From: Deferrisomatales bacterium
GTDB taxonomy: Bacteria > Desulfobacterota > Deferrisomatia > Deferrisomatales > JACRMM01
Direction: 5' to 3'
DNA length: 11,191 nucleotides
Assembly (NCBI GenBank): GCA_033551855.1
Contig: JAWSUI010000085.1
Location: forward strand, 1-11,191
Shown here: positions 1 to 11,191 of the stretch, piece after piece
Numbering within the stretch: the first letter of the stretch is position 1
Layout of the letters: the number at the start of each line of letters is the position of its first letter
Position numbers and translations under genes: made by a program
The notes under the pieces: model-generated
The model's database searches: none
Told to the model about the DNA's origin: nothing
What the model saw: the letters and a program-made list of their open reading frames with translations, nothing else

Positions 1-1087
1 ACCAGCCCTTGTACTCGTCGAGGACGAAGGGCACGAGGTTCGTGAGGCTGGCCGACAGCATCGCGGTGAAGGGCTTGTGCTGGGTGACCGAGGACCAGGG
101 CGTCTGGCCCCCGGAGTAGAACCGCAGGAGGACCTGCTCGGCCGTGGAGCTCTTGCCGCAGCCCTTGGGTCCCCAGAGAAGGAGGAAAGGGAACTTGCGG
201 GTGAGGCGCTTCGCCAGACGGGCTTTCCAGGCCAGCGCCCCCATCCAGCCGACCATGGCCGCCGCCTTGCCGGTGGCGGTGAATTCCAGCCCGTGGGCCA
301 TCAGTGTCCGGAAGTCTTCCGGAGAAGGTTTCGGGACATCTCCAGCGGCCCACCGCACGCCGGTTTCCCCGTCACAGTAGTGGATCAGATCCGAGGTCTC
401 GCGGCCCCCTGGGAGGAGCGTCTTGTCGGTCAGGACGAGCGTCCACTCGCCGTCGCGCTCGTTGAGCCCGAGGACCCGGGTGCCCCGCACCGTACGCGCC
501 TGGGACCGGGAGAGGTGGACCATGAGCTGCTGGAGGTGGTTGTCGGTGCCGAACCACCCGAACTCGGTCGTGGGAAGCCGCCGCTTGAACCCCACCCTGG
601 ACTCGCAGGCCTCGGGGGGCAGGGTGACTTCCCGTCGGATACCGCGATCCGGGCAGGCGGTGGTGCCGAGCATCACCTCGCCGTCGCCGTTCAGTTGCAC
701 GCGGCGGTCGATCTCGATGTGACCGGTGAAGATGACGTCGCCGTACTTGGTCTGCTCCCGGGGGTTGTACTGGACCACCTCGGTGCCCCGGCGGGTCTGG
801 ATGACCTGGCCGATGTCTGCGGCGTGGAGTTGCGCGTCGGAAGCGGCCGCGTGCTTGTCAGGAGAAGGAGGGGAGGGCGCTGAACTCTTGGAGACCTGTC
901 GTGAGGCCTCGACTTCCGCTACGATCTCGCGGACGACCTTGGCGGTGACCCCGAAGATCCGGGCGGCCTCTTTCCCGTACTTCTCCCGGGCTGCCGGGCC
1001 CACCCGCAGAAGCAGGGGTGCCACTTCGTCGCGCAGAGTGCGTTCCACTGCGAGGGGGCGGTGGGCCTCTGTGGCGAGCCGCTGCAT
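1..1087 (-). CDS. P-loop NTPase/helicase; probable C-terminal part of a DnaG-like primase-helicase (runs off the window's left edge; 5' end probably disrupted)
   Basis: Not in the ORF track (no stop inside the window). Manual translation from ATG 1087 gives MQRLATEAHRPLAVERTLRDEVAPLLLRVGPAAREKYGKEAARIFGVTAKVVREIV...KFPFLLLWGPKGCGKSSTAEQ...LVPFVLDEYKGW. Walker A GPKGCGKS is at 149-172 and Walker B FVLDE at 14-28. The frame is open upstream to 1264 (alternative GTG at 1156). SAEDLFLWRMQRL...LLLRV...REKY..EAARIFGV resembles the helical bundle that follows TOPRIM in DnaG. Confidence 0.75.
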   Translation of the reverse strand, partial: MQRLATEAHRPLAVERTLRDEVAPLLLRVGPAAREKYGKEAARIFGVTAKVVREIVAEVEASRQVSKSSAPSPPSPDKHAAASDAQLHAADIGQVIQTRRGTEVVQYNPREQTKYGDVIFTGHIEIDRRVQLNGDGEVMLGTTACPDRGIRREVTLPPEACESRVGFKRRLPTTEFGWFGTDNHLQQLMVHLSRSQARTVRGTRVLGLNERDGEWTLVLTDKTLLPGGRETSDLIHYCDGETGVRWAAGDVPKPSPEDFRTLMAHGLEFTATGKAAAMVGWMGALAWKARLAKRLTRKFPFLLLWGPKGCGKSSTAEQVLLRFYSGGQTPWSSVTQHKPFTAMLSASLTNLVPFVLDEYKGW

Positions 1088-1242
1088 CCGCCAGAGGAAG
1101 AGGTCCTCGGCGGACGTTGCGCGACAGGGAAGGCACCAGGGGAAGGAATAAGGCACGTCAAACCGCCTGCCGGGCGGCGGTCCTGGGCGACGGTGAAGTG
1201 CTTGTTTCCATTGTCGAATCGTGACGCCTCCGCTGTCCCACG

Positions 1243-1340
1243 ACTGACCCCTGAGACTGACCCCTCAAATCGGGGGACGGGGCGGCATCGGGGGTTCTCT
1301 CTTGTCCTCTCGGACGCTCTCATTCCTCGCTGGGACGGAC
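1243..1340 (+). repeat. ~98-bp direct repeat, copy 1 (arm-site region of an att end)
   Basis: ACTGACCCCTGAGACTGACCCCTCAAATCGGGGGAC...GGGACGGAC aligns with 3594-3690 with 4 substitutions and 1 indel. Contains TGACCCCTGA (1245) and TGACCCCTCA (1258). Confidence 0.95.
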
Positions 1341-1500
1341 GGTTGATCCCCTGTGGGCGAGGTTCGCGGTTCCAAGGTAGGGCGCCCTCCAGAAAGACCG
1401 CCCTTCGCAGCCGGGCGGGGGCTTGGTGGCGCGTGCCACTCCAACACGCCCCGCTGGGACAGTTCGCGCAGGCAGTTCTCGCAGCGACAATCGAGCACGG

Positions 1501-1542
1501 TATGTCTAGGCTCAGCAGACTTACTGTGCTTTAATTGCAGTC
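1501..1542 (+). promoter_or_regulatory. Putative extended -10 promoter and operator palindrome for the AbiE-1 operon
   Basis: TG-c-TTTAAT at 1527-1535, 7 nt before ATG 1543, with no Shine-Dalgarno. Imperfect inverted repeat TATGTCT-N9-AGACTTA at 1501-1523. AbiEi proteins are known autorepressors. Confidence 0.4.
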
Positions 1543-2184
1543 ATGGAACGGGACCTTAGAGATCAGATCGGCCGAGAAGAGTTCGACTATCCCTCCCTGA
1601 TGTCGGCGCTCGCCTCGTACGCCAACCCCCGGGACAAGGTGACCTCGCTCCTTCGCCGGGGCACGATCGTCCGGGTGAAGAAGGGCCTCTACGTCTTCGG
1701 GGAGGCCCTCCGGCGACGGCCGTACTCCAGGGAGCTCCTGGCGAACCTCATCTACGGGCCGTCGTTCGTATCCCTGGACTACGCACTGGCCTTCCACGGG
1801 CTCATCCCGGAACGGGTCGAAACAGTCACGTCCGTCACGCCGAAGCGAGGCCGCGCGTTCCGCACCCCCGTGGGGGCCTTCGTGTACCGGCAGGTGTCCG
1901 AGGCGTACTTCCCCCTGGGCATGGACAGGGTCGAGCAGGGCGACGTGGCCTTTCTGATCGCCGTGCCGGAGCGGGCTCTGGCCGACAAGGTGCGCGACGA
2001 CCGAGGGAACCCGCTTCGGTCGTTGGCCGACGCGGCGGCTTATCTCTTCGAGAATCTGCGGCTCGATCCGGAGGCAGCGGCTGTCATGGACGCGGCGCTC
2101 TTGGAGGAGCTCGCGGAGGCCGCGGGTTCCCAGAAGGTCGCGCTGTGCGCCCGTGTGCTGCGGCGGCTGGAGAGTGGCCGATGA
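1543..2184 (+). CDS. AbiEi-like type IV toxin-antitoxin antitoxin / transcriptional regulator (213 aa)
   Basis: N-terminal wHTH signature (LLRRGTIVRVKKGLYVF), then PSFVSLDYALAFHGLIPERV..VTSVT and IAVPERALAD, typical of AbiEi-like antitoxins. ATGA overlap with the downstream nucleotidyltransferase. Confidence 0.85.
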   Translation: MERDLRDQIGREEFDYPSLMSALASYANPRDKVTSLLRRGTIVRVKKGLYVFGEALRRRPYSRELLANLIYGPSFVSLDYALAFHGLIPERVETVTSVTPKRGRAFRTPVGAFVYRQVSEAYFPLGMDRVEQGDVAFLIAVPERALADKVRDDRGNPLRSLADAAAYLFENLRLDPEAAAVMDAALLEELAEAAGSQKVALCARVLRRLESGR

Positions 2185-3047
2185 ACCCCGCGGTCGCCGC
2201 CATGCTTCGGAAGTACGAGCGCCGCAGCGTAGACGACCACGTCAACGCCCTGCGGGAGATCTTCCAGGAGATCGCCCTGTGCGGTCTGTGGCGGGGTAAG
2301 TTCTTCGAGAGGGCTGCCTTCTACGGCGGCACCGCGCTGCGGGTTCTCTATGGCTTGGACCGGTTCAGCGAGGACATGGACTTCTCCCTCCTGACGCCGG
2401 ACCCGCACTTCGACCTGGGCCCGTACTGCGCGATGATGATGAGGGAGCTTCGCGCTTGGGGCTTCTCGACGCGGGTGGAGAAGAAGGAGAAGAGCGCGGA
2501 GAGCGCGGTGGGGTCGGCGTTCCTCAAGGCGAACACGGCCGAGCAGTTGCTCCTCATCGAGGCGGGGGAGGAGATCGCGGGGGCGATCCACCGGGGCCAG
2601 AATCTCAGGATCAAGGTGGAGGTGGACACCGATCCGCCTCCTGGATTTTCCACCGAAGCCAAGTTCCTGCTCCTGCCGGTGCCGTTCTCGGTGCGGGTCT
2701 TCGACCTGCCCAGTCTCTTCGCGGGCAAGATGCACGCGCTCCTCTGTCGCGGGTGGAAGACGAGGGTCAAGGGGCGCGACTGGTACGACCTGGTCTGGTA
2801 CGCGTCCCGAGGGACGGAGCTCGACCTCGCCCACCTGGAAGCCCGCATGCGCCAGAGCGGCCACTACAAGGGGAATGACTCCCTCGATGAGGGCACCTTC
2901 CGGCCACTCCTAGCCGAGAAGATCGACCGGCTGGACGTGGCGAGGGCTCGCGCCGACGTGGAGCGCTTCCTCGTGGACCCCTCGTCGGTCGAGATCTGGT
3001 CCCGGGAGTTCTTCCACGCGGTAGGCGAGAAGATCGCTGTCCGGTGA
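2181..3047 (+). CDS. AbiEii/AbiGii-family nucleotidyltransferase toxin (DUF1814-like), 288 aa
   Basis: Motifs AFYGGTALRVLYGLDRFSEDMDF, IKVEVD, AGKMHALLCR and KGRDWYD. The start ATG at 2181 overlaps the antitoxin's TGA. Confidence 0.9.
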   Translation: MNPAVAAMLRKYERRSVDDHVNALREIFQEIALCGLWRGKFFERAAFYGGTALRVLYGLDRFSEDMDFSLLTPDPHFDLGPYCAMMMRELRAWGFSTRVEKKEKSAESAVGSAFLKANTAEQLLLIEAGEEIAGAIHRGQNLRIKVEVDTDPPPGFSTEAKFLLLPVPFSVRVFDLPSLFAGKMHALLCRGWKTRVKGRDWYDLVWYASRGTELDLAHLEARMRQSGHYKGNDSLDEGTFRPLLAEKIDRLDVARARADVERFLVDPSSVEIWSREFFHAVGEKIAVR

Positions 3048-3267
3048 AGGATCCCTCTTCCTGAGCGGTGGAGCGACAGGGCAAGGGAAGCACGCGAGTC
3101 CCTGTGGGGGGCACCGCAAGCCGACCATGGCGGTCCGCCCTTGGGCTGCCGGGGAAGCCCATCGACGTCGGCAGGAGGACCCTCGGGGAGAGGGGAGGAT
3201 CCCTGCAGCCGCTGAGGAGGGTACCGTGTCCGTGACACACCGACCCCAGAGAGGGCCCCTTACCGCC

Positions 3268-3420
3268 TTGACGGGGGAAGATGGTGTCCGGGAGCAACTG
3301 AGGCGGGCCCTCGCCGACTGCGAGCGGTTGCGGTGGGAGAACGACCACCTGAAGGCCGAGTTGGCTTTCCATGTCACCCCAAGTGTCACCCCGATGGTGC
3401 CGTCTCGTGCCGGCAAGTGA
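3268..3420 (+). pseudogene. Possible 5' remnant of a gene with an N-terminal coiled coil, cut off at the arm repeats
   Basis: From TTG 3268: ..GVREQLRRALADCERLRWENDHLKAELAFH, a heptad-like helix, then read-through into the repeats (VTPSVTP) and a stop. Confidence 0.25.
3372..3392 (+). repeat. Tandem TGTCACCCC x2 (12-bp period), putative integrase arm-type sites left of the core
   Basis: TGTCACCCC-AAG-TGTCACCCC. It has the same 12-bp period and ACCCC core as the TGACCCC pairs right of the tRNA fragment. Confidence 0.6.
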
Positions 3421-3512
3421 GGCCACAGCCATGGCGAGTACGGCGCATAAGAATTTGAAAACGTTGATCTTTCGCCACGTTTCGCGGGAAAGCAATTGCG
3501 GCTTTTTTCGCC

Positions 3513-3535
3513 TTCGAATCCCGTTTCCCGCTCCA
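3513..3535 (+). mobile_element. att core: 3' end of a tRNA-Gly (T-loop to CCA)
   Basis: TTCGAATCCCGTTTCCCGCTCCA = T-loop TTCGAAT, 3' T-stem strand, acceptor strand TTCCCGC, discriminator T and CCA, as in bacterial tRNA-Gly starting GCGGGAA. The 5' T-stem strand, D arm and anticodon arm are absent. It lies in an AT-richer patch ~300 bp from the integrase stop. Confidence 0.85.
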
Positions 3536-3593
3536 CGAAAAAATGCTCTGATTTCAAGAGCTTAGGTTCCATTCAGACCCCCGGTTTTGCCGC

Positions 3594-3690
3594 ACTGACC
3601 CCTGAACTGACCCCTCAAATCGGGGGACCGGGCGGCATCGGGGGTTCTCTTTTGTCCTCTCGGACGCTCTCATCCCTCGCCGGGACGGAC
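3594..3690 (+). repeat. ~97-bp direct repeat, copy 2 (arm-site region)
   Basis: Matches 1243-1340. TGACCCCTGA at 3596 and TGACCCCTCA at 3608. Confidence 0.95.
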
Positions 3691-3770
3691 CGCTTTCCCG
3701 TTTCCAGCACCACGAGAAACGCTGTGATGCCGATGGGTTGGGCCCACAAAGGCCCACGTTTTCGGGGCAC

Positions 3771-3811
3771 TGACCCCTGAAATGACCCCTGAAACGGGGG
3801 GTGACCCCCGA
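3771..3811 (+). repeat. TGACCCC(T/C)GA x3, putative arm-type sites next to the integrase stop
   Basis: TGACCCCTGA at 3771 and 3783 (12-bp period) and TGACCCCCGA at 3802. Confidence 0.75.
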
Positions 3812-3828
3812 CGCGGTTCGTTTCCGGG

Positions 3829-5073
3829 TCACCGGAAGTCCTCCCCCAGGTACCCGCGGATCGCTTCGGCGTCCTGCTCCACCCCCTCCACGTAGTCGCC
3901 GTACACCTCGTAGATCATCTGCTTCGAGCCGTGCCCCATGAGGCGCACGAGGCGGGTGGGGTGGACCCCCACCACCAGGCACCACACCGCGTAGGTGTGC
4001 CGGGTGGTGTAGGGCTTCCGCTCCGGGAGGCCCGCCCGCTTCAGGGCGTGGCGCCACCAGGTCCAGTACACCCGGGCGGCGAAGGGCTCCCCCTCCGGCC
4101 GGGTGACCAGGTGCTCGCCGTCGGTCCGGTCCTCGAGCACGGCGAGGCGCTCCCGGAGCGCGGCGGTGAGCGGGAGCTCCCGGGCCCGGTAGGCGGTCTT
4201 GAGCTGCTCGCTCTCGACCCCGTTGACGATCTTGTTGCGCACCCGGATGCGGTCGGGAAGCACGTCGCGCCGCCGGAGCCCGGCGAGCTCCGAGGCGCTC
4301 ATCCCCGTCATGATCATGATCTCGGTGATGGGCCGGTTCCACTCGTCCATCGCCTCGACCAGCGCCGTCCACTCCGCGAACCGGAACGGCTGGGGCGGGT
4401 CCTTGCGCTTCTGGGGCAAGATCCGGCCGTACCGGACCCGGTGCTGGGCGTAGCCGAAGGGGTCCGACAGCGTCCACTGGTAGTCCGCGCAGGCCTCCCG
4501 GTAGATGATCCGGAGCGGGATCAGGATGTTGTTGATCCGCGCCCGGGAGAGCCCCTTCGCCACGAGGTCCATCACCAGCTGGACCACCAGGGGGCCCGTG
4601 ATCGCGTCGAAGGTGAGGGCTTCGAAGCGCGGCCGCAGATGCATGCGGAGGATGGTGCGGTAGTCCCGGCGCTTGGTCGGGCTGGGGTCCCGCGCCAACA
4701 TCGTCTCCTGCCATCGGTCCGCGTACTCCCCGAAGGTGACGTCCCGCGGCTCCTGCCGGTACTCCCGGCCCTCCAGCCGCGCGAAGAGCTCCTTCTTCTC
4801 TCTGTTGGCTCCCGGAAACGCTTCCTCGAACCGGAAGGTTCCCGCCTTGATTCCTTCTCCCACCCGGTCCAGGAAGGCCCTGAGCTTTCGTTCGTTCGCC
4901 GGGGTGCCCTCCAGGCCGGTCGCCTCGTTCACGATCTGTCCGAGGTAGGGAAACCGGACGTAGAGCCTCGTCGAGTTCTTCCGGCGCCGGACCGCGCCGA
5001 ACGGGCGGGGTTTCAGCTCCTCTTCTTCCAGGAACCGGCCTAGGTCGATGACCTGTGCCTTGCGTTGTGCCAT
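3829..5073 (-). CDS. Tyrosine recombinase/integrase with N-terminal arm-DNA-binding domain (DUF3596-like), 414 aa
   Basis: N-terminus LYVRFPYLG....EATGLEGTPANERK..FRFEEAFP; core-binding region TFGEYADRW...DY..IL..HL.P.F; catalytic region TGMSASELAGL, LKT, PYTTRHTYA, LMGH and MIYEVYGDY. ATG 5073 is preceded by GGAAGGA; the ORF track start at 5163 is less likely. Confidence 0.92.
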   Translation of the reverse strand: MAQRKAQVIDLGRFLEEEELKPRPFGAVRRRKNSTRLYVRFPYLGQIVNEATGLEGTPANERKLRAFLDRVGEGIKAGTFRFEEAFPGANREKKELFARLEGREYRQEPRDVTFGEYADRWQETMLARDPSPTKRRDYRTILRMHLRPRFEALTFDAITGPLVVQLVMDLVAKGLSRARINNILIPLRIIYREACADYQWTLSDPFGYAQHRVRYGRILPQKRKDPPQPFRFAEWTALVEAMDEWNRPITEIMIMTGMSASELAGLRRRDVLPDRIRVRNKIVNGVESEQLKTAYRARELPLTAALRERLAVLEDRTDGEHLVTRPEGEPFAARVYWTWWRHALKRAGLPERKPYTTRHTYAVWCLVVGVHPTRLVRLMGHGSKQMIYEVYGDYVEGVEQDAEAIRGYLGEDFR

Positions 5074-5149
5074 TCGTCTATCCTTCCCGCATGTCGCACC
5101 TCCCTTCCGGCCGTTGCGTGTGGGTCCGGAATGGAGGGTACCCGACGGG

Positions 5150-5458
5150 TCAGGCCTGCTCAAGGCCCCAGTCCAGGTTGACGCCGACGGTCCCGCTCCG
5201 GGTCCCGCGCCGGTGGGCTCGGGGAGGGGGAGGCGGAGAGGACGATTGGGCCGCGGCGCGCCGCTCGCGGCGGGCCCGGGCCTCCTCCAGGGGGGCTTCG
5301 AGACATTGAGGAAAGGGGAAGCGAAGGGCCCGGCCCAGCCGGACGTAGTGCACCCCCTCCCGGAGTCGCCCTTCCTTCATCCACTGGAAGACCGTGGAAT
5401 CGCCGATCTGGGCGCGGTCGGCGAACTCCGAGAGCTTGAGGTAACGTTCCACGGCCAT
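5150..5458 (-). CDS. Excisionase-like helix-turn-helix protein (102 aa)
   Basis: MAVERYLKLSEFADRAQIGDSTVFQWMKEGRLREGVHYVRLGRALRF fits a MerR/Xis-type wHTH. AGGGGGA lies before ATG 5458, and the gene is directly upstream of the integrase. Confidence 0.8.
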   Translation of the reverse strand: MAVERYLKLSEFADRAQIGDSTVFQWMKEGRLREGVHYVRLGRALRFPFPQCLEAPLEEARARRERRAAAQSSSPPPPPRAHRRGTRSGTVGVNLDWGLEQA

Positions 5459-5468
5459 GGTCGTCCCC

Positions 5469-6626
5469 CTACCGGGTGCCGTCTGCGCTGACGGTCGCCC
5501 CGGTTGGTCGACCGGCGCTCGGCGGTCGCCACCGAAGCAGGCTGTCCGGGTCCTCGCCATCGGGGAGCATCACCACCCGGGCCTGGAGGCCTGCGGTCAG
5601 GCAGACCGGCAAGGCCCGGGTCAGGGCCTTCTCGCCGGCATCGTCGGCGTCCAGGAGGAAGATCACCTCCCGTGCGCCGGCCGCGAGGAGGAGCTTCGCC
5701 TGAGCCTCGGAGAAGGCCGTGCCGCCCAGGGCCACGGCGTGGGGCAGCCCGGCCAGGTGCAGGCGAACCGCGTCCAAGGGCCCCTCGACGATCCAGGCGA
5801 AGCCGGCCTTTCGGATGGACTCCCGGGCCTCGAAGAATCCGAACAGCGTCTCCCGCTTCGCGTACACGCCGGGGACCTTCCCCGGGTTCAGGTACTTGGG
5901 ATCGGCGGCCCGGCCGTCCTCGTCGGGGACACTGCGGCCCACGTGGGCGACGATTCGGCCCCGCCGGTCGCGCATCGGGAAGGTAAGGCGGTTTCTCTGG
6001 AACTCGTATGCTGGGCGGCCTTCTTTGCCGGGGCGGAGGAGGTAGGCGTCGAGCAGGAGGTCCTCGGCGAAGCCCCGGCCCTGGAGCCACCGGGTAAGCC
6101 CGCCGGTCCCCGGAGCGTAGCCGATCCCCCAGGGCCCTACGGCCTCTTCCAACTCGCGCTCGTCCAAGTAGGCCCGAGCCCGAGCCGCCGTGGGGAGGTC
6201 GGCATGGAGCGCCTTGGCGAAGTACTCCTGGGCCGCTTCCAGGGCCCGGAGGATCTCCTCACGGCGGTCTTTCTCCGCTCGGAGCTGGGTAGGGTCGACG
6301 TGCGCCGCGGACACGTCCACGCCCGCGGCCGTCGCGAGCTCCCGTACCGTCTCGGCGAAGCCGAGTCCGATCTTCTCCCGCACGAAGGCGATGGCGTCCC
6401 AGGTTCGGGCGCAGGTGCCGAAGCACTCGAATCGCGGCGCGCCGACCTGGGGCTCCTGGTAGGCCACGAAGGAGGGCGTGTCCTCCTCGTGGAACGGGCA
6501 ACGGGCGCGGGGCAGTCCGCTGCCGGGGACCCAGCGCACGCCGTGACGCTCACCCAGCGCCACGAGGTCGACCCGCCGTTTCAGGGCTTCGAGGTCGATC
6601 CCGGAGCGAGACACGTCGCCGGTCAC
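5469..6626 (-). CDS. DnaG-like DNA primase (CHC2 zinc finger + catalytic core + TOPRIM), lacking the C-terminal domains
   Basis: CPFHEEDTPSF..FECFGTC zinc finger; RNRLTFPMRDRRGRIVAHVGR; PKYLN; IVEGPLDAV; ALGGTAF; LDADDAG; LPDGEDPDSLLR, then 20 unrecognisable residues and a stop. GTG 6626 overlaps the upstream gene's TGA. Confidence 0.9.
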   Translation of the reverse strand: MTGDVSRSGIDLEALKRRVDLVALGERHGVRWVPGSGLPRARCPFHEEDTPSFVAYQEPQVGAPRFECFGTCARTWDAIAFVREKIGLGFAETVRELATAAGVDVSAAHVDPTQLRAEKDRREEILRALEAAQEYFAKALHADLPTAARARAYLDERELEEAVGPWGIGYAPGTGGLTRWLQGRGFAEDLLLDAYLLRPGKEGRPAYEFQRNRLTFPMRDRRGRIVAHVGRSVPDEDGRAADPKYLNPGKVPGVYAKRETLFGFFEARESIRKAGFAWIVEGPLDAVRLHLAGLPHAVALGGTAFSEAQAKLLLAAGAREVIFLLDADDAGEKALTRALPVCLTAGLQARVVMLPDGEDPDSLLRWRPPSAGRPTGATVSADGTR

Positions 6627-6817
6627 CGCCGGTTGCCCCCGAGCCGGGGAAGTTGGTCGATCCACCGGTCCAGGTCCCGCTGGTCCACGAGGACCTTCCT
6701 CCCGTGCCGGATGTACCGGAAGGGAAGATCGCCCCGGGAGATTCGGTTCCTCAGAGTCCCGGGAGCGTGGCCGATGTACTCGGCAGCCTCCGGGATCGAC
6801 AGCAGCCTCTTGCCCAT
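6623..6817 (-). CDS. Excisionase-like / AlpA-type HTH DNA-binding protein (64 aa)
   Basis: MGKRLLSIPEAAEYIGHAPGTLRNRISRGDLPFRYIRHGRKVLVDQRDLDRWID. AAGGAG RBS before ATG 6817; translationally coupled to the primase. Confidence 0.88.
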   Translation of the reverse strand: MGKRLLSIPEAAEYIGHAPGTLRNRISRGDLPFRYIRHGRKVLVDQRDLDRWIDQLPRLGGNRR

Positions 6818-7186
6818 GCCTGTGTCTCCTTCCCGTGCGTGATCGGGCAGTGCCTTCTCATGTCGGAGGACTGTCGTATGCCACTGACGGGGAGCCGAAC
6901 GCACCCCCCTTCACCCGGATAAAACGGTCGGCGTGGAACACGGAGGAGGGAATTAGGCGGGAAAGGGCTCAGATTGCCTGGGAGGGGTGACGAGATCTTG
7001 GGGGTCCGGGGCAAAGAAGGAGAGCTTCGGCCAGTTCATGCAGCGCTCGGAGAACGTCTCGAGGTCACTCGGACGCGGTCCCAGGGCCAGCGGCAGTCGG
7101 AGGGCGACAAGCCCGCGGTTGCGGACGCCTCCCGACGCCTCCCGACCGTGCTGCGGTCGGGTGCGGAAGAAGGCGACCTTCCCCGC

Positions 7187-7693
7187 CTACCTCTTCCAAA
7201 ACTCCGCTTTGAGCTCTTCGTACACCTGGAACACGATGGGGCACAGGGAGCAGTTCAAGACGGCCTGGGCGAGGCGGAAGACGAAGCCCTTCTTGTGGAG
7301 GTGGGGGAAGGACCGGCAGTCCCTGGGGCGGTGCTCGTAGACGGTGCAGCGGTTGTCCTTGAGGAGCGGGCAGGGCTTCGCGCGAAACCTCTCGCCGCGC
7401 TCCCCGTCGGCGGGCTCCAGGTACCTGGTCCGGAACTTCTGCACCGGAATCCCCTGGGCGGCGGCGAGTCGTTTCACGTCGGCCGGCCCCAGGACCGGCC
7501 CGACGACCTTGCAGCAGTTGGCGCACCGAGTGCAGTCGATTTGGGCCGCCGCCCGAAAGGCCTCGCGAACCGCCCGATCGATCCTCGCTGCCGGGAAGTC
7601 CGAGGCCTTGAGGAACGACCGGAAGGCCCAGTTGGCCCGCTCCCTCTCCTCCGCCAACCGCTGGATTCGCGTCAGATCGGTTTCGAGCTTCAT
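7187..7693 (-). CDS. YkgJ-family (CxxCxxCC) cysteine-cluster protein, 168 aa
   Basis: DCTRCANCCK...PCPLLKDNRCTVYEHRPRDCRSFP...CSLCP. Confidence 0.88.
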   Translation of the reverse strand: MKLETDLTRIQRLAEERERANWAFRSFLKASDFPAARIDRAVREAFRAAAQIDCTRCANCCKVVGPVLGPADVKRLAAAQGIPVQKFRTRYLEPADGERGERFRAKPCPLLKDNRCTVYEHRPRDCRSFPHLHKKGFVFRLAQAVLNCSLCPIVFQVYEELKAEFWKR

Positions 7694-7727: not shown

Positions 7728-8552
7728 TCATGGCTCGGCCTCCGCTCCCTTCCACGGCTCGCCGGGTAGCCGGGCCAATAGCTCGTCCCGCGTGTAGCGG
7801 GCCGCCTCCTCGATGTCCCACGACGCACGGGGGGCGAGCAGCGGCTCAATGTCCCCCGTGAACATCCGGTCGGCGAGCTTGGCGGCCAGGTTGGCCTCGA
7901 ACTCGGCCCGGCTCACGCGGTGGCTTCCCTCGTCCAGGTAGCGCAGGAAGCAGGAGACGACGCGATCCGGGTCGATCTCCGCGGACCGATGGGCCGTCCA
8001 GATGTCGAAGAGGTCCCGGCTCTTCTTGCGCTGGTAGAGTGCCCGGAGCTTCGTGCCGAGGAGCTCGTCGAGGTGGTACGTCTTGATGGAGGCGGCGCCC
8101 GAGAACCAACGCGAGCGGACCTCGTGCTTGCGCTCGAGGAGTTCGAAGACGCTGAAGTGCTCTCGCGAGTTGATCTCGATCTTGAGCCGCATTGGAAGCG
8201 GGGTCGGCCCTTCGGATTGCATCCGGTAGAGGAGCACGACGCGCCCTTCCTTCAGGGTGCGCCGCGGGGTGCCGAGCCAGGGATCGAGCCTCGCGCGCAC
8301 GGCGTCGAGCAGCCCGCCGATCGGACCGGCGGCGACCTGTACGAGGTCGATGTCCTCGGAGTATCGGGCCGGCGGCGTCAGATGCAGCTTGTAGAGGGCG
8401 GTGCCGCCCCGGAAGGCGAGCGCCTCTCTGGCCTCCGGAAGGTCGAAGATCTCCACCAGCGCGCGGCTGAGGATGAGGTCTTGCTCGACCTGTGAGTCCT
8501 GGACCCAGGGCGCCGTCTCGCGCCACTCGGTGATGAAGTCGAAGGGGATCAC
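7728..8552 (-). CDS. AbiEii/AbiGii-family nucleotidyltransferase toxin, 274 aa
   Basis: MIPFDFITEWR..APW...QVEQDLILSRAL, LAFRGGTALYKL, RYSEDIDL, LKIEINSRE and TKLRALYQRKKSRDLFD. GTG 8552 overlaps the antitoxin's TGA; the 468-aa track ORF is over-extended. Confidence 0.9.
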   Translation of the reverse strand: MIPFDFITEWRETAPWVQDSQVEQDLILSRALVEIFDLPEAREALAFRGGTALYKLHLTPPARYSEDIDLVQVAAGPIGGLLDAVRARLDPWLGTPRRTLKEGRVVLLYRMQSEGPTPLPMRLKIEINSREHFSVFELLERKHEVRSRWFSGAASIKTYHLDELLGTKLRALYQRKKSRDLFDIWTAHRSAEIDPDRVVSCFLRYLDEGSHRVSRAEFEANLAAKLADRMFTGDIEPLLAPRASWDIEEAARYTRDELLARLPGEPWKGAEAEP

Positions 8553-9331
8553 AGGTCGGGCTCCACCGAGACGTTCACGAGGAGGCGCCACCGCGGGTCG
8601 TGCGGCGCTTCGTCTGCGGGTGCGCTCGGCACCAGCGCCGTCGTCTCGTTCACCACGCCGGCGATATACTGGGCGAGGGGTTCGGTCTTGTCGCCGGCGC
8701 CCACCTGCTCGAGGAGATGGCCGAGCCGCTGCGCCCACGGCACGGGCGACAGGGGTGCAAGCGAGGCCAGCATCTCCCCATCCAGCTTCTCGGCGAGCTC
8801 CGCGAGGACGGTGGCGACGTTGTCGATCCCGCCCGCGTGCTGCGGGTAGCCCACGAGGTCGAAGGCCGTGGCCTCGGGCGTCGAGACCGCGAGCTGTCCG
8901 CGCGGGGTGTTGACGCGCACCGTCGGCACCTCGGCGACGTTGCGCCGAGCGACGAAGGCGACCCGGGCGTCTCCGCAGGCGATCGGGGGCCGGTTCTTCG
9001 CCACCATGACCTGGAACACCTGGGGCTGCTGGTGCGCAGCCCCGTGATAGCGGCCGGCCGTGAGGAGCGCGGCGTAGTAGGAGAGGCCGAGGTGGTCCAT
9101 GAGCTGCGGCACGAACTGATCGGCAGGCAGGCAACCGAGCCGCCGATACTCGGGCGGGACGACCACGTGGAAGCCGCGGTGGGGCGTGGCGACGAGGCCC
9201 TTGCGCTGGAGCCGCCGCAGGGCGGCCCGCGCCGCGGCGACCGACGCCCCGAGGCCTGCGGCCAGCTCGCCGGTCGTGAAGTGGTACCGTCCCCGGGACG
9301 CCAGGTTGTCGATGAGGTCCGCCGCCGACAT
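8549..9331 (-). CDS. AbiEi-family type IV TA antitoxin (260 aa)
   Basis: GRYHFTT..L....ARAALRRL..KG..ATPHRGFHVVVPPEYR, YYAALLTA..YHGAAHQQPQVFQV, VSTPEATAFDL and QRLGHLLE. GGAG lies upstream of ATG 9331 (alternative GTG 9355). Confidence 0.88.
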   Translation of the reverse strand: MSAADLIDNLASRGRYHFTTGELAAGLGASVAAARAALRRLQRKGLVATPHRGFHVVVPPEYRRLGCLPADQFVPQLMDHLGLSYYAALLTAGRYHGAAHQQPQVFQVMVAKNRPPIACGDARVAFVARRNVAEVPTVRVNTPRGQLAVSTPEATAFDLVGYPQHAGGIDNVATVLAELAEKLDGEMLASLAPLSPVPWAQRLGHLLEQVGAGDKTEPLAQYIAGVVNETTALVPSAPADEAPHDPRWRLLVNVSVEPDL

Positions 9332-9361
9332 GGTTCGCGCTCCATCAGGAATCACGGGAGA

Positions 9362-10334: not shown

Positions 10335-10971
10335 TCTCTTCTCGGCCCCTGCCGTGCGGGGTACGGAGGGGCCGCAAGTTTGGCGATGCCGTACGGCGGT
10401 CAGAGGTGGGGCTGGAAGACCGCGGGGGGGTCCTTCAAGTCCGCCGGAGCGAATCGCCCCTCCAGGGCGAACGAAGGGCGCGGTTCTTGGCCGCTCGCCG
10501 GACCGCCGTCCCAGGGAGAGGGGGGCTGGGCACTGCATCGTCGGAGGGCGCCGGCATTCGATGGACGTCGGCCCAGCGAGCGGCTGGGGCGTTTCCACCG
10601 CGCCCTTCGGCGGGTCCTGCGCCCCGGCTGGCGCCGGCAAGGTAGGCTCCGGCCCCGACGGGGAGAACCCGGCCCTCCCCCTGGCGAGCGGCCCATGAAC
10701 GATGGCCCTCGTCGGGTCGCCCGTCCTGGCCGCCCCTCCCGCCATAGCCCCTCCCGGGTGTGTGCTGGGGCTTCGCGTTTTGCCCTCCGGCCGGGCCCGG
10801 GGCTTCCGCGCCCCGAACCCCTCCGGCCTCTCTGCCCGCCCCTGAGCTTGGCCGGGAGGGAACACGCCCGAGCGGGACTCTCCCCATCCCCCCGCGCCTG
10901 AGGTCTTTCCACTTCGAGCTTCTCCTCCGCGTCCCGAGTCCTCCGCCACTTCGAGCCGCGCCCCCCTGCAC

Positions 10972-11009
10972 AAAAAGATCGGGCCGAACGATCGGAGCCC
11001 GATCTTTTT
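10972..11009. repeat. Perfect 13-bp inverted repeat (hairpin; could act as a bidirectional terminator)
   Basis: AAAAAGATCGGGC-N12-GCCCGATCTTTTT. Confidence 0.7.
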
Positions 11010-11191
11010 CTGTTCCCGGCCGCGCGACCCGCCCCGCGTTCGACTGCGGCCGGCAGAGGGGCTTTCCCCTGGGGGACGGGACCGTCCGTCCCCCTCGGGG
11101 TTCCTCCTGCCGGCAAAGAGCCTCCTCCCCATCGGGGTGGACACACATGGGGTGTGTTCATTTCGAGCCTCGAGCGAGAGGCGAAGGAGGC

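Follow-up and report, generated by a model that had tools for sequence, protein, structure and literature searches.

The window, meaning the whole 11,191-nt stretch of DNA that was analyzed, is the entire contig C85 of a 132-contig Deferrisomatales genome; C11, C21, C53, C110, C103, C32, C111 and the like are contigs of the same assembly. It carries the 5' part of a helicase gene and, ~4.4 kb away on the same strand, a gene for a DnaG-type primase. Between them lie an AbiE gene pair, an attachment (att) core with arm repeats, an integrase gene (int) and a probable excisionase gene (xis). DNA left of the att core is assigned below to one integrative and conjugative element (ICE), called ICE1, and DNA right of it to a second element, probably ICE2. 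A second Deferrisomatales genome, C14-16, with loci L008 and L068, was used for comparison. The main features are as follows.

2..1156, minus strand: 5' 385 codons of the helicase gene, with Walker A/B motifs; the contig start cuts the gene
1154..1168, minus strand: helicase start, GTG at 1156 with a ribosome-binding-site-like AGGCGG 6 nt upstream, read from the sequence; use of this start is predicted
1243..1340, unstranded: relic arm joint, with a CTGACCCC arm repeat of the helicase side and a 95% copy of 3594-3690
1543..3047, plus strand: AbiEi-like (1543-2184, weak Pfam match) and AbiEii (2181-3047) pair, right-end cargo of ICE1
3372..3391, plus strand: ICE1-type arm repeat, TGTCACCCC twice, with the genome's only other match at C11:70597
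3513..3535, plus strand: att core, equal to the 3' end of tRNA-Gly(GCC), with exact copies at C11:70517 and C21:1574
3595..3789, plus strand: arm repeats of the right-hand element, CTGACCCC pairs at 3595 and 3770, like the arms of the right-hand att site (attR) on C21
3829..5073, minus strand: tyrosine integrase (Arm-DNA-bind_2 and Phage_integrase)
5150..5458, minus strand: probable excisionase (xis), named from position and homologues, without a Pfam match
5469..6626, minus strand: stand-alone DnaG-type primase with zinc finger and Toprim, catalytic motifs present
6623..6817, minus strand: HTH_17 (helix-turn-helix) protein, first gene of the operon (Pfam E 4e-12)
6911..6940, minus strand: promoter-like motif TGTTCCA-N10-TTTAT, common to the ICE2 transfer operons

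Primase and helicase have complementary parts of one protein. The primase frame (6665..5469, minus strand) encodes CHC2 zinc finger, DNAG_N and Toprim domains, and the zinc finger and the catalytic Glu and DxD of Toprim, which identify a DnaG protein, are all present. After Toprim, the chain lacks the helical bundle and the DnaB-binding domain; the bundle is found on the helicase instead. Primase likeness ends, as the original prediction had noted, after the DPDSLLR motif at 5532, and the frame stops 20 codons later at a stop codon that adjoins the ribosome-binding site of xis. The helicase frame (1156..2, minus strand), open at the contig start, has SAEDLF at 1114 followed by Walker A/B motifs, and its residues ~15–85 correspond to the bundle that in DnaG comes after Toprim. 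A frame resuming at ~1120, as had been proposed, agrees with SAEDLF and the Walker motifs, but the gene is predicted to begin independently, at the GTG at 1156, with a conserved N-terminus of 14 codons. Within this N-terminus (1124-1144, minus strand) there is a conserved CxxC (CxxH in P0125) in a helix predicted with low confidence, which might serve as a metal or redox site. A conserved hairpin was also considered at the ribosome-binding site of the helicase gene but was rejected, as it folded no better than shuffles (z-scores −0.3 to −1.4).

A search for fused proteins covered 1.84 billion representative sequences with P0003, a full-length relative 85% identical to the helicase, as the query. 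The primase half was matched by 10 of the 150 matches listed, and two uncharacterized metagenomic proteins, P0126 and P0127, are single frames of 1051–1068 amino acids that match both halves. In P0126 the primase half aligns to 24–379 and the helicase half from 384, and in P0127 to 36–350 and from 371, so that the two segments are adjacent without overlap. Identity to these proteins is 37% for the primase and 41% and 33% for the helicase (37% for the P0126 helicase half in the search with P0003). The first ~90 residues of the helicase, used as a profile, matched 15 of 109 DnaG-like proteins (iE<0.01; independent E value) and none of 109 shuffled ones, and in 9 of the 12 best DnaG-like matches, those in which DPD was located, the match begins 12–13 residues past that motif. 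The fused proteins and the bundle matches thus bear out the view that the two halves are adjacent segments of the same full-length proteins, and comparison of their sequences indicates that primase and helicase descend from one fused primase-helicase.

Across the closest relatives, the two genes are separate. All 10 of the closest primases (50–85% identity) are short stand-alone proteins of 331–423 amino acids, with one frameshifted and two maybe cut by contig ends. Nine have the DPD motif, 7–78 residues from motif start to C-terminus, and five close primases have tails of equal length after it. None of the 10 is fused; the nearest fusions are 33–41% identical, and a length-restricted search gave a best primase match of at least 698 amino acids at 41% identity. 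On the helicase side, the same start as in C85 is present in C21, L008, P0003, P0395, P0399 and P0400, with an FPWCLPC N-terminus common to L008 and the four database proteins of this set, and the P0125/L075 helicase (45–47% identity) begins with MSLPWC directly after an in-frame stop. The P0124 and P0398 helicases are called at later starts. Because the closest homologues are separate genes that end and start at the same points, an outcome that the original prediction had itself named as telling against it, its claim of one interrupted gene fails.

Both halves are under purifying selection. The ratio of nonsynonymous to synonymous substitution rates (dN/dS) for the helicase is 0.14 between C85 and C21 and 0.16 between C85 and L008; for the primase, compared with L068, it is 0.30, and the first 14 helicase codons differ from those of the second genome by six synonymous and three nonsynonymous changes. 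Trees were built from rows hand-picked from the match lists (40 for the primase, 29 for the helicase). The 10 split primases form one clade (support of 100/100) that groups with the fused P0126, P0127 and P0005 (98/97), apart from host-type DnaG, and nine split helicases group with the fused P0126 and P0127 (100/100). In genome C14-16, locus L068 reads primase (with its stop), xis, int and att, and L008 reads int remnant, att and helicase; the att core there differs from that of the window and is one that we take to be tmRNA-like. Among 21 genomes of the order, the two with the primase are also the two with the helicase, a count weakened by kinship and element load. The homologue search gave no match in 400 other genomes of the phylum sample or in seven of the family, and no helicase relative was found in viral contigs or GenBank phages. 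Four distant Clostridium plasmid records, annotated as CHC2 zinc-finger proteins, match the helicase, a metagenome scan gave three distant helicase loci with no primase or integrase matches, and a primase scan of genome contigs gave 52 loci with long matches of at most 37% identity. The best reading of these comparisons is that the split is old and fixed, having arisen in this lineage by gene fission just after Toprim.

Sequences flanking the att core in the window point to two different elements. The copy of the core at C11:70517 lies inside an intact tRNA-Gly(GCC); an Rfam scan found a tRNA on C11 only and no intron or other RNA family. The TGTCACCCC pair left of the core matches the genome only here and beside the C11 tRNA, and the CTGACCCC pairs right of it match the arms flanking the C21 attR at 1233 and 1421. 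Because the types of arm repeat differ, the left flank is assigned to the element on C11 and the right flank to the element that ends at the C21 attR. A tyrosine integrase, a xis recognized by position and homology and an att core at a tRNA 3' end are all present, as in a tRNA-targeting ICE with F-type transfer genes. The integrase is 47% identical to that of C11 and about 50% to those of L068 and L078, and the xis is 48–50% identical to the gene that precedes int at these two loci and belongs to no Pfam family. A second copy of the helicase gene, 95% identical, is at C21:2-1156, ~420 nt from its att and with no primase nearby; ICE1 has no primase copy in the assembly. With this second copy adjoining the terminal attR of C21, both genes are probably carried by the right-hand element. 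The alternative raised with the original prediction, that tandem sister elements each lost one half, is therefore close as regards the sister elements but fits poorly as regards complementary loss.

Genome-wide counts were three att cores, two integrases of this family, two helicases, two relaxases and two paralogous sets of transfer genes, one on C11/C53 and the other on C110/C103/C32. Identities between the sets are 98% for TraE, 86% for TraK, 97% for TraC, 82% for TraF, 97% for TraH, 97% for TraN and 71% for TrwC. Their sigma-like factors, at 61% identity over 184 amino acids, are the most divergent pair compared. On C11 the tra genes come after int. As judged from these counts and from the variant of the operon motif described below, the right-hand element is probably ICE2 (C110, C103, C32). 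We therefore propose, with a probability of roughly 0.7, that the window spans the point where two sister ICEs meet in tandem at tRNA-Gly(GCC), with helicase and primase the two products of an old fission. The order would be tRNA, ICE1, att (3513), second element and att (C21). ICE1 (C11, C53 and others) would have at its right end the helicase, relic arm, AbiE pair and attR, and the second element would begin with att, int, xis, primase and HTH gene and end on C21 with the other helicase copy and attR. The 4.4 kb read earlier as a single nested xis-int-att-AbiE block would thus be where parts of two elements meet at the tRNA-Gly core. A recombination switch by excision of this block is also very unlikely, since the core is internal and no recombination site is present at the block ends.

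Several other observations concern the same sites. In the relic joint (1243-1340), an arm of the helicase side runs into one of the int side without an intervening att core; the joint presumably arose by deletion between arm repeats of the att site of an excised circle (attP) or of a tandem junction. The C21 (L005) attR arm at 1233-1574 is a tandem duplication of ~188 nt, and the DNA upstream of the helicase start resembles a further worn copy. The C85 and C21 helicase copies are identical over 816-1235 and have 62 differences in 1-815, a pattern of recent conversion or assembly collapse. In C14-16, integrase remnants are located downstream of the helicase in L009 (1745-1996) and upstream of it in L008 (1969-2424), hinting at repeated tandem build-up and deletion; tandem integration is described as common in the cited passages of two sources (PMC8409611; bioRxiv 10.64898/2026.01.13.699239). 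In assembled contigs of other data, run X2 covers the junctions of primase with xis (5280-5653) and of helicase with arm (450-1265), and a 6281-nt contig of run X1 holds 1271-3365 and then continues into other sequence.

A motif links the primase operon to transfer. TGTTCCA-N9-10-TTTAT has four matches in the genome and none in three shuffles. One precedes the HTH-primase-xis-int operon of the window (6911-6940), and the other three (C32:5263, C32:30052 and C110:2151) precede trwC, trhF-traF-traH and dsbC-traL-traE-traK of the C32/C110 set. A second form, TGTTCCA-N-AATACC, has three matches and none in shuffles, and it precedes the xis-int and dsbC-tra operons on C11 (C11:72381, C11:75440) and trwC on C53 (C53:21846). 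Scanning of genome contigs for the motif gave 28 loci, of which the three from C14-16 were examined; in addition, the TTTAT form stands ahead of the L068 primase, the L078 xis and the L108 trhF. Each transfer set has a gene like sigma-70 region 2 (weak Pfam match). We infer that the motifs are promoters for sigma-like factors encoded by the ICEs and that the operon in the window belongs to the ICE2 regulon. Motif variants paired with a sigma-like gene in each ICE may insulate tandem relatives from one another. A third copy of a conserved block that precedes both trwC genes was found at C2:2779-2879 of G000, on a contig with no relaxase, possibly an island with only an origin of transfer (oriT).

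The helicase is predicted to be a stand-alone MCM-like protein resembling SCCmec (staphylococcal cassette chromosome mec) Cch and SaPI (Staphylococcus aureus pathogenicity island) Rep. Fold matching used a structure model of P0003, the 85% relative, in place of the C85 helicase. This model, built from 86 sequences, has a predicted local distance difference test score (pLDDT) of 93; one from six sequences (pLDDT 42) was discarded. Its best match was SCCmec Cch 5DGK (E 4e-13, template modeling score of 0.65 by target) and its second SaPIBov1 Rep 8TCH (E 6e-10), followed by PriRep1 and MCM. Sequence identity to Cch and SaPI Rep is just 10–12%, a helicase profile gave only short P-loop matches among PDB sequences, and PF06048 (DUF927) was not matched up to E 0.1; viral proteins named DUF927 appear among the fold matches. 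CTTACC/GGTAAG clusters lie 3' of both helicase ends in C14-16 (4 in 467 nt and 8 in 497 nt, against a genome background of 0.08 per kb), and the iteron origin of SaPIs sits just downstream of rep in the cited part of PMC7581432.

From these features we infer how the operon may be regulated, what role it may have in replication and that primase and helicase may cooperate. The sigma-like factor of the ICE would switch on the HTH-primase-xis-int operon together with the transfer operons, and the ICE would then excise. The helicase would load at an iteron origin just 3' of its gene, the separately made primase would prime copying of the circle, and replication of the circle would keep the excised ICE from loss. 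In this scheme no DNA event would rejoin the two reading frames.

A number of observations weigh against the reading of tandem ICEs and old fission, or against parts of it. Overlaps of contig ends gave no links, so that no single sequence has primase and helicase within one element, and other tyrosine-recombinase matches on C116, C97 and C7 and one on C37 could serve ICE2; the order of contigs is thus a reconstruction because of both. The DNA context of the two genes is known from two genomes only. P0004 and P0154 begin with linker-like sequence, not the PWC N-terminus, and cannot be classed, P0277 and P0284 are maybe cut by contig ends, and monophyly of the split helicases has support of just 51/17. 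Length-restricted searches passed over P0126 and P0127, so a closer fusion may have escaped. Neither the helicase 3' half nor the putative origin region beyond it is in this assembly. The motif patterns took their final form after matches had been seen; a looser pattern has 20 matches compared with 8–17 in shuffles, and of four new profile matches above 18 bits, just two precede transfer genes. The primase is dispensable in the operon, as C11 and L078 have motif-xis-int without it, and in the similar operon of MGIVchHai6 the DUF927 gene is dispensable for excision and transfer, according to the cited passages of PMC7449626.

An addition to the proposed reading, which we entertain tentatively, is that excision is a precondition for transcription of the helicase, which would come by read-through across attP, such that an integrated ICE cannot fire its origin. 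The circle would have promoter, HTH gene, primase, xis, int, attP and helicase in this order, all on one strand. The ICE motif was not found upstream of the helicase in C85, C21, L008 or L075, nor was a sigma-70 consensus (the 68% GC of the genome weakens such scans), and the helicase is within ~0.45 kb of the att core in C21 and L008. Tn916 provides a precedent in the cited part of PMC11658703. Read-through is possible because in the circle int would be followed, past attP, by a co-oriented helicase gene that lacks the motif. A strict need for it is disfavored because in ICE1 ~2.3 kb with an opposed AbiE pair separates att and helicase, yet this copy is under purifying selection; a weak terminator-like hairpin (3561-3545) also lies between int and att, folding no better than shuffles. 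It is unlikely that a fuller version holds, a two-part excision-gated replicase in which the primase operon at the left-hand att site (attL) and a promoterless helicase at attR give one transcript across attP and the proteins reassociate via the DnaG bundle. If the excision-gated version were true, replication would start only on the excised circle.

It is rather improbable that the right-hand element is a smaller mobilizable island that uses the activator of ICE2, like SGI1 (Salmonella genomic island 1) or MGIVchHai6, a case in which the old fission would still hold. The layout of motif, HTH_17, replication gene and xis parallels that of MGIVchHai6 in the cited part of PMC7449626, C85 has no transfer gene, and other recombinases are available for ICE2. 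Set against this, two ICEs would account exactly for the numbers of integrases, helicases, att sites and transfer sets, the ICE1 xis-int operon bears its own motif variant at the same position, and an oriT-like block was not found on C85 or C21. We consider it very unlikely that the two genes are decayed relics, with each sister having lost one half and neither gene working, or that the contig is misassembled. The relic arm joint points to a past deletion, the second genome has int remnants next to its helicases, and the identity of C85 and C21 over 816-1235 could be assembly collapse, but the frames are open with catalytic motifs, dN/dS is well below 1, tails are of equal length in five close primases and both junctions are present in contigs of another study. 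Hardly credible is the interruption of one gene by a nested xis-int-att-AbiE element whose excision restores a fused frame: the halves are complementary with just ~12 residues unaccounted for and are in the right order and strand, but the att core of the integrase sits mid-block, no above-chance word flanks the block in the window or the second genome, the helicase N-terminus is its own and under selection (with an in-frame stop before the start in P0125/L075), and the split is the norm among close relatives. The in-frame 8-mer noted earlier as within chance is indeed so, as three 8-mers are common to both junction regions and at least one arises in 41% of 2000 shuffles; junction microhomology was rejected as a recombination site because the longest shared words, of 8 nt, are at this chance level. 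A joint of ~5530 to ~1120-1180 was absent from the 15 joints shown of 18 in assembled contigs from four runs of four studies (X1, X2, X6 and X11 of 20 listed), contigs that cannot show the absence of rare forms.

The right-hand part of the window holds cargo of the right-hand element.

7187..7693, minus strand: CxxCxxCC protein, recurring on C111
7728..9355, minus strand: second AbiE pair, its AbiEi recurring on C111
9549..10334, plus strand: metallophosphoesterase

The two AbiE pairs (1543-3047 and 7728-9355) are distinct and lie on either side of the junction, and C111 holds further copies of the CxxCxxCC gene and the second AbiEi that are 93–97% identical. Non-coding sequence at 10453-10820 recurs inverted at C21:2941-3187 (92–97% identical), just past the terminal attR, and there is an inverted repeat at about 10975-11010. 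A 97-codon open reading frame at 3127-3420, of no family, overlaps the ICE1 arm repeat and may not be a gene.

Taken in this way, the locus offers, in place of the supposed DNA-level switch, a testable explanation of how the replicative helicase of an integrated ICE might be silenced. It also presents a natural split point in DnaG, with the Toprim core apart from the helical bundle, that is maintained by selection, and an ICE family in a little-studied bacterial order. Sister ICEs that differ in promoter motifs along with their sigma-like genes suggest how tandem relatives may avoid cross-activation.

Each ingredient is already known: primase and helicase that are separate as opposed to fused, islands in tandem at tRNAs, and transcription coupled to excision. 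The combination was not found in a literature search, which gave no description of primase and helicase on opposite sides of an att site; supplements of island surveys, outside the search, could list relatives. The closest full-length relatives of both halves, the fused P0126 and P0127, differ in being single frames. AgaPP-AgaPH, which the cited passages of PMC11724360 describe as separate primase-polymerase and helicase genes whose products bind each other, an arrangement its authors call unusual, has a primase of the archaeo-eukaryotic (AEP) type and adjacent genes. In Tn916, DNA-processing genes gain a promoter only upon circularization, according to the cited part of PMC11658703. The layout here would permit the same for the putative helicase, but Tn916 is unrelated and replicates by rolling circle.

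SCCmec Cch and SaPIBov1 Rep (MCM-like, DUF927-containing) are alike in fold to the helicase model, and the cited passages of PMC7581432 describe islands in which helicase and primase are separate or occasionally fused and the iteron origin is just after the helicase gene. Unlike Cch and SaPI Rep, the helicase of the window has an N-terminal DnaG helical bundle, and unlike in those islands, the primase gene is across the att site and not beside the helicase. In MGIVchHai6, an AcaCD site, HTH_17, DUF927 gene and xis form an operon switched on by the activator of the helper (cited part of PMC7449626), and replication of excised SGI1 depends on a helper activator (cited part of PMC7826253). MGIVchHai6 and MGIVflInd1 resemble the window in operon layout, with activator site, HTH_17, replication gene and xis. 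These islands and SGI1 differ in that the operon here holds a primase with the helicase at the other end, that the motif goes with a sigma-like gene and not AcaCD or SetCD, and that the element here targets tRNA-Gly and probably is a full ICE that has a TrwC relaxase.

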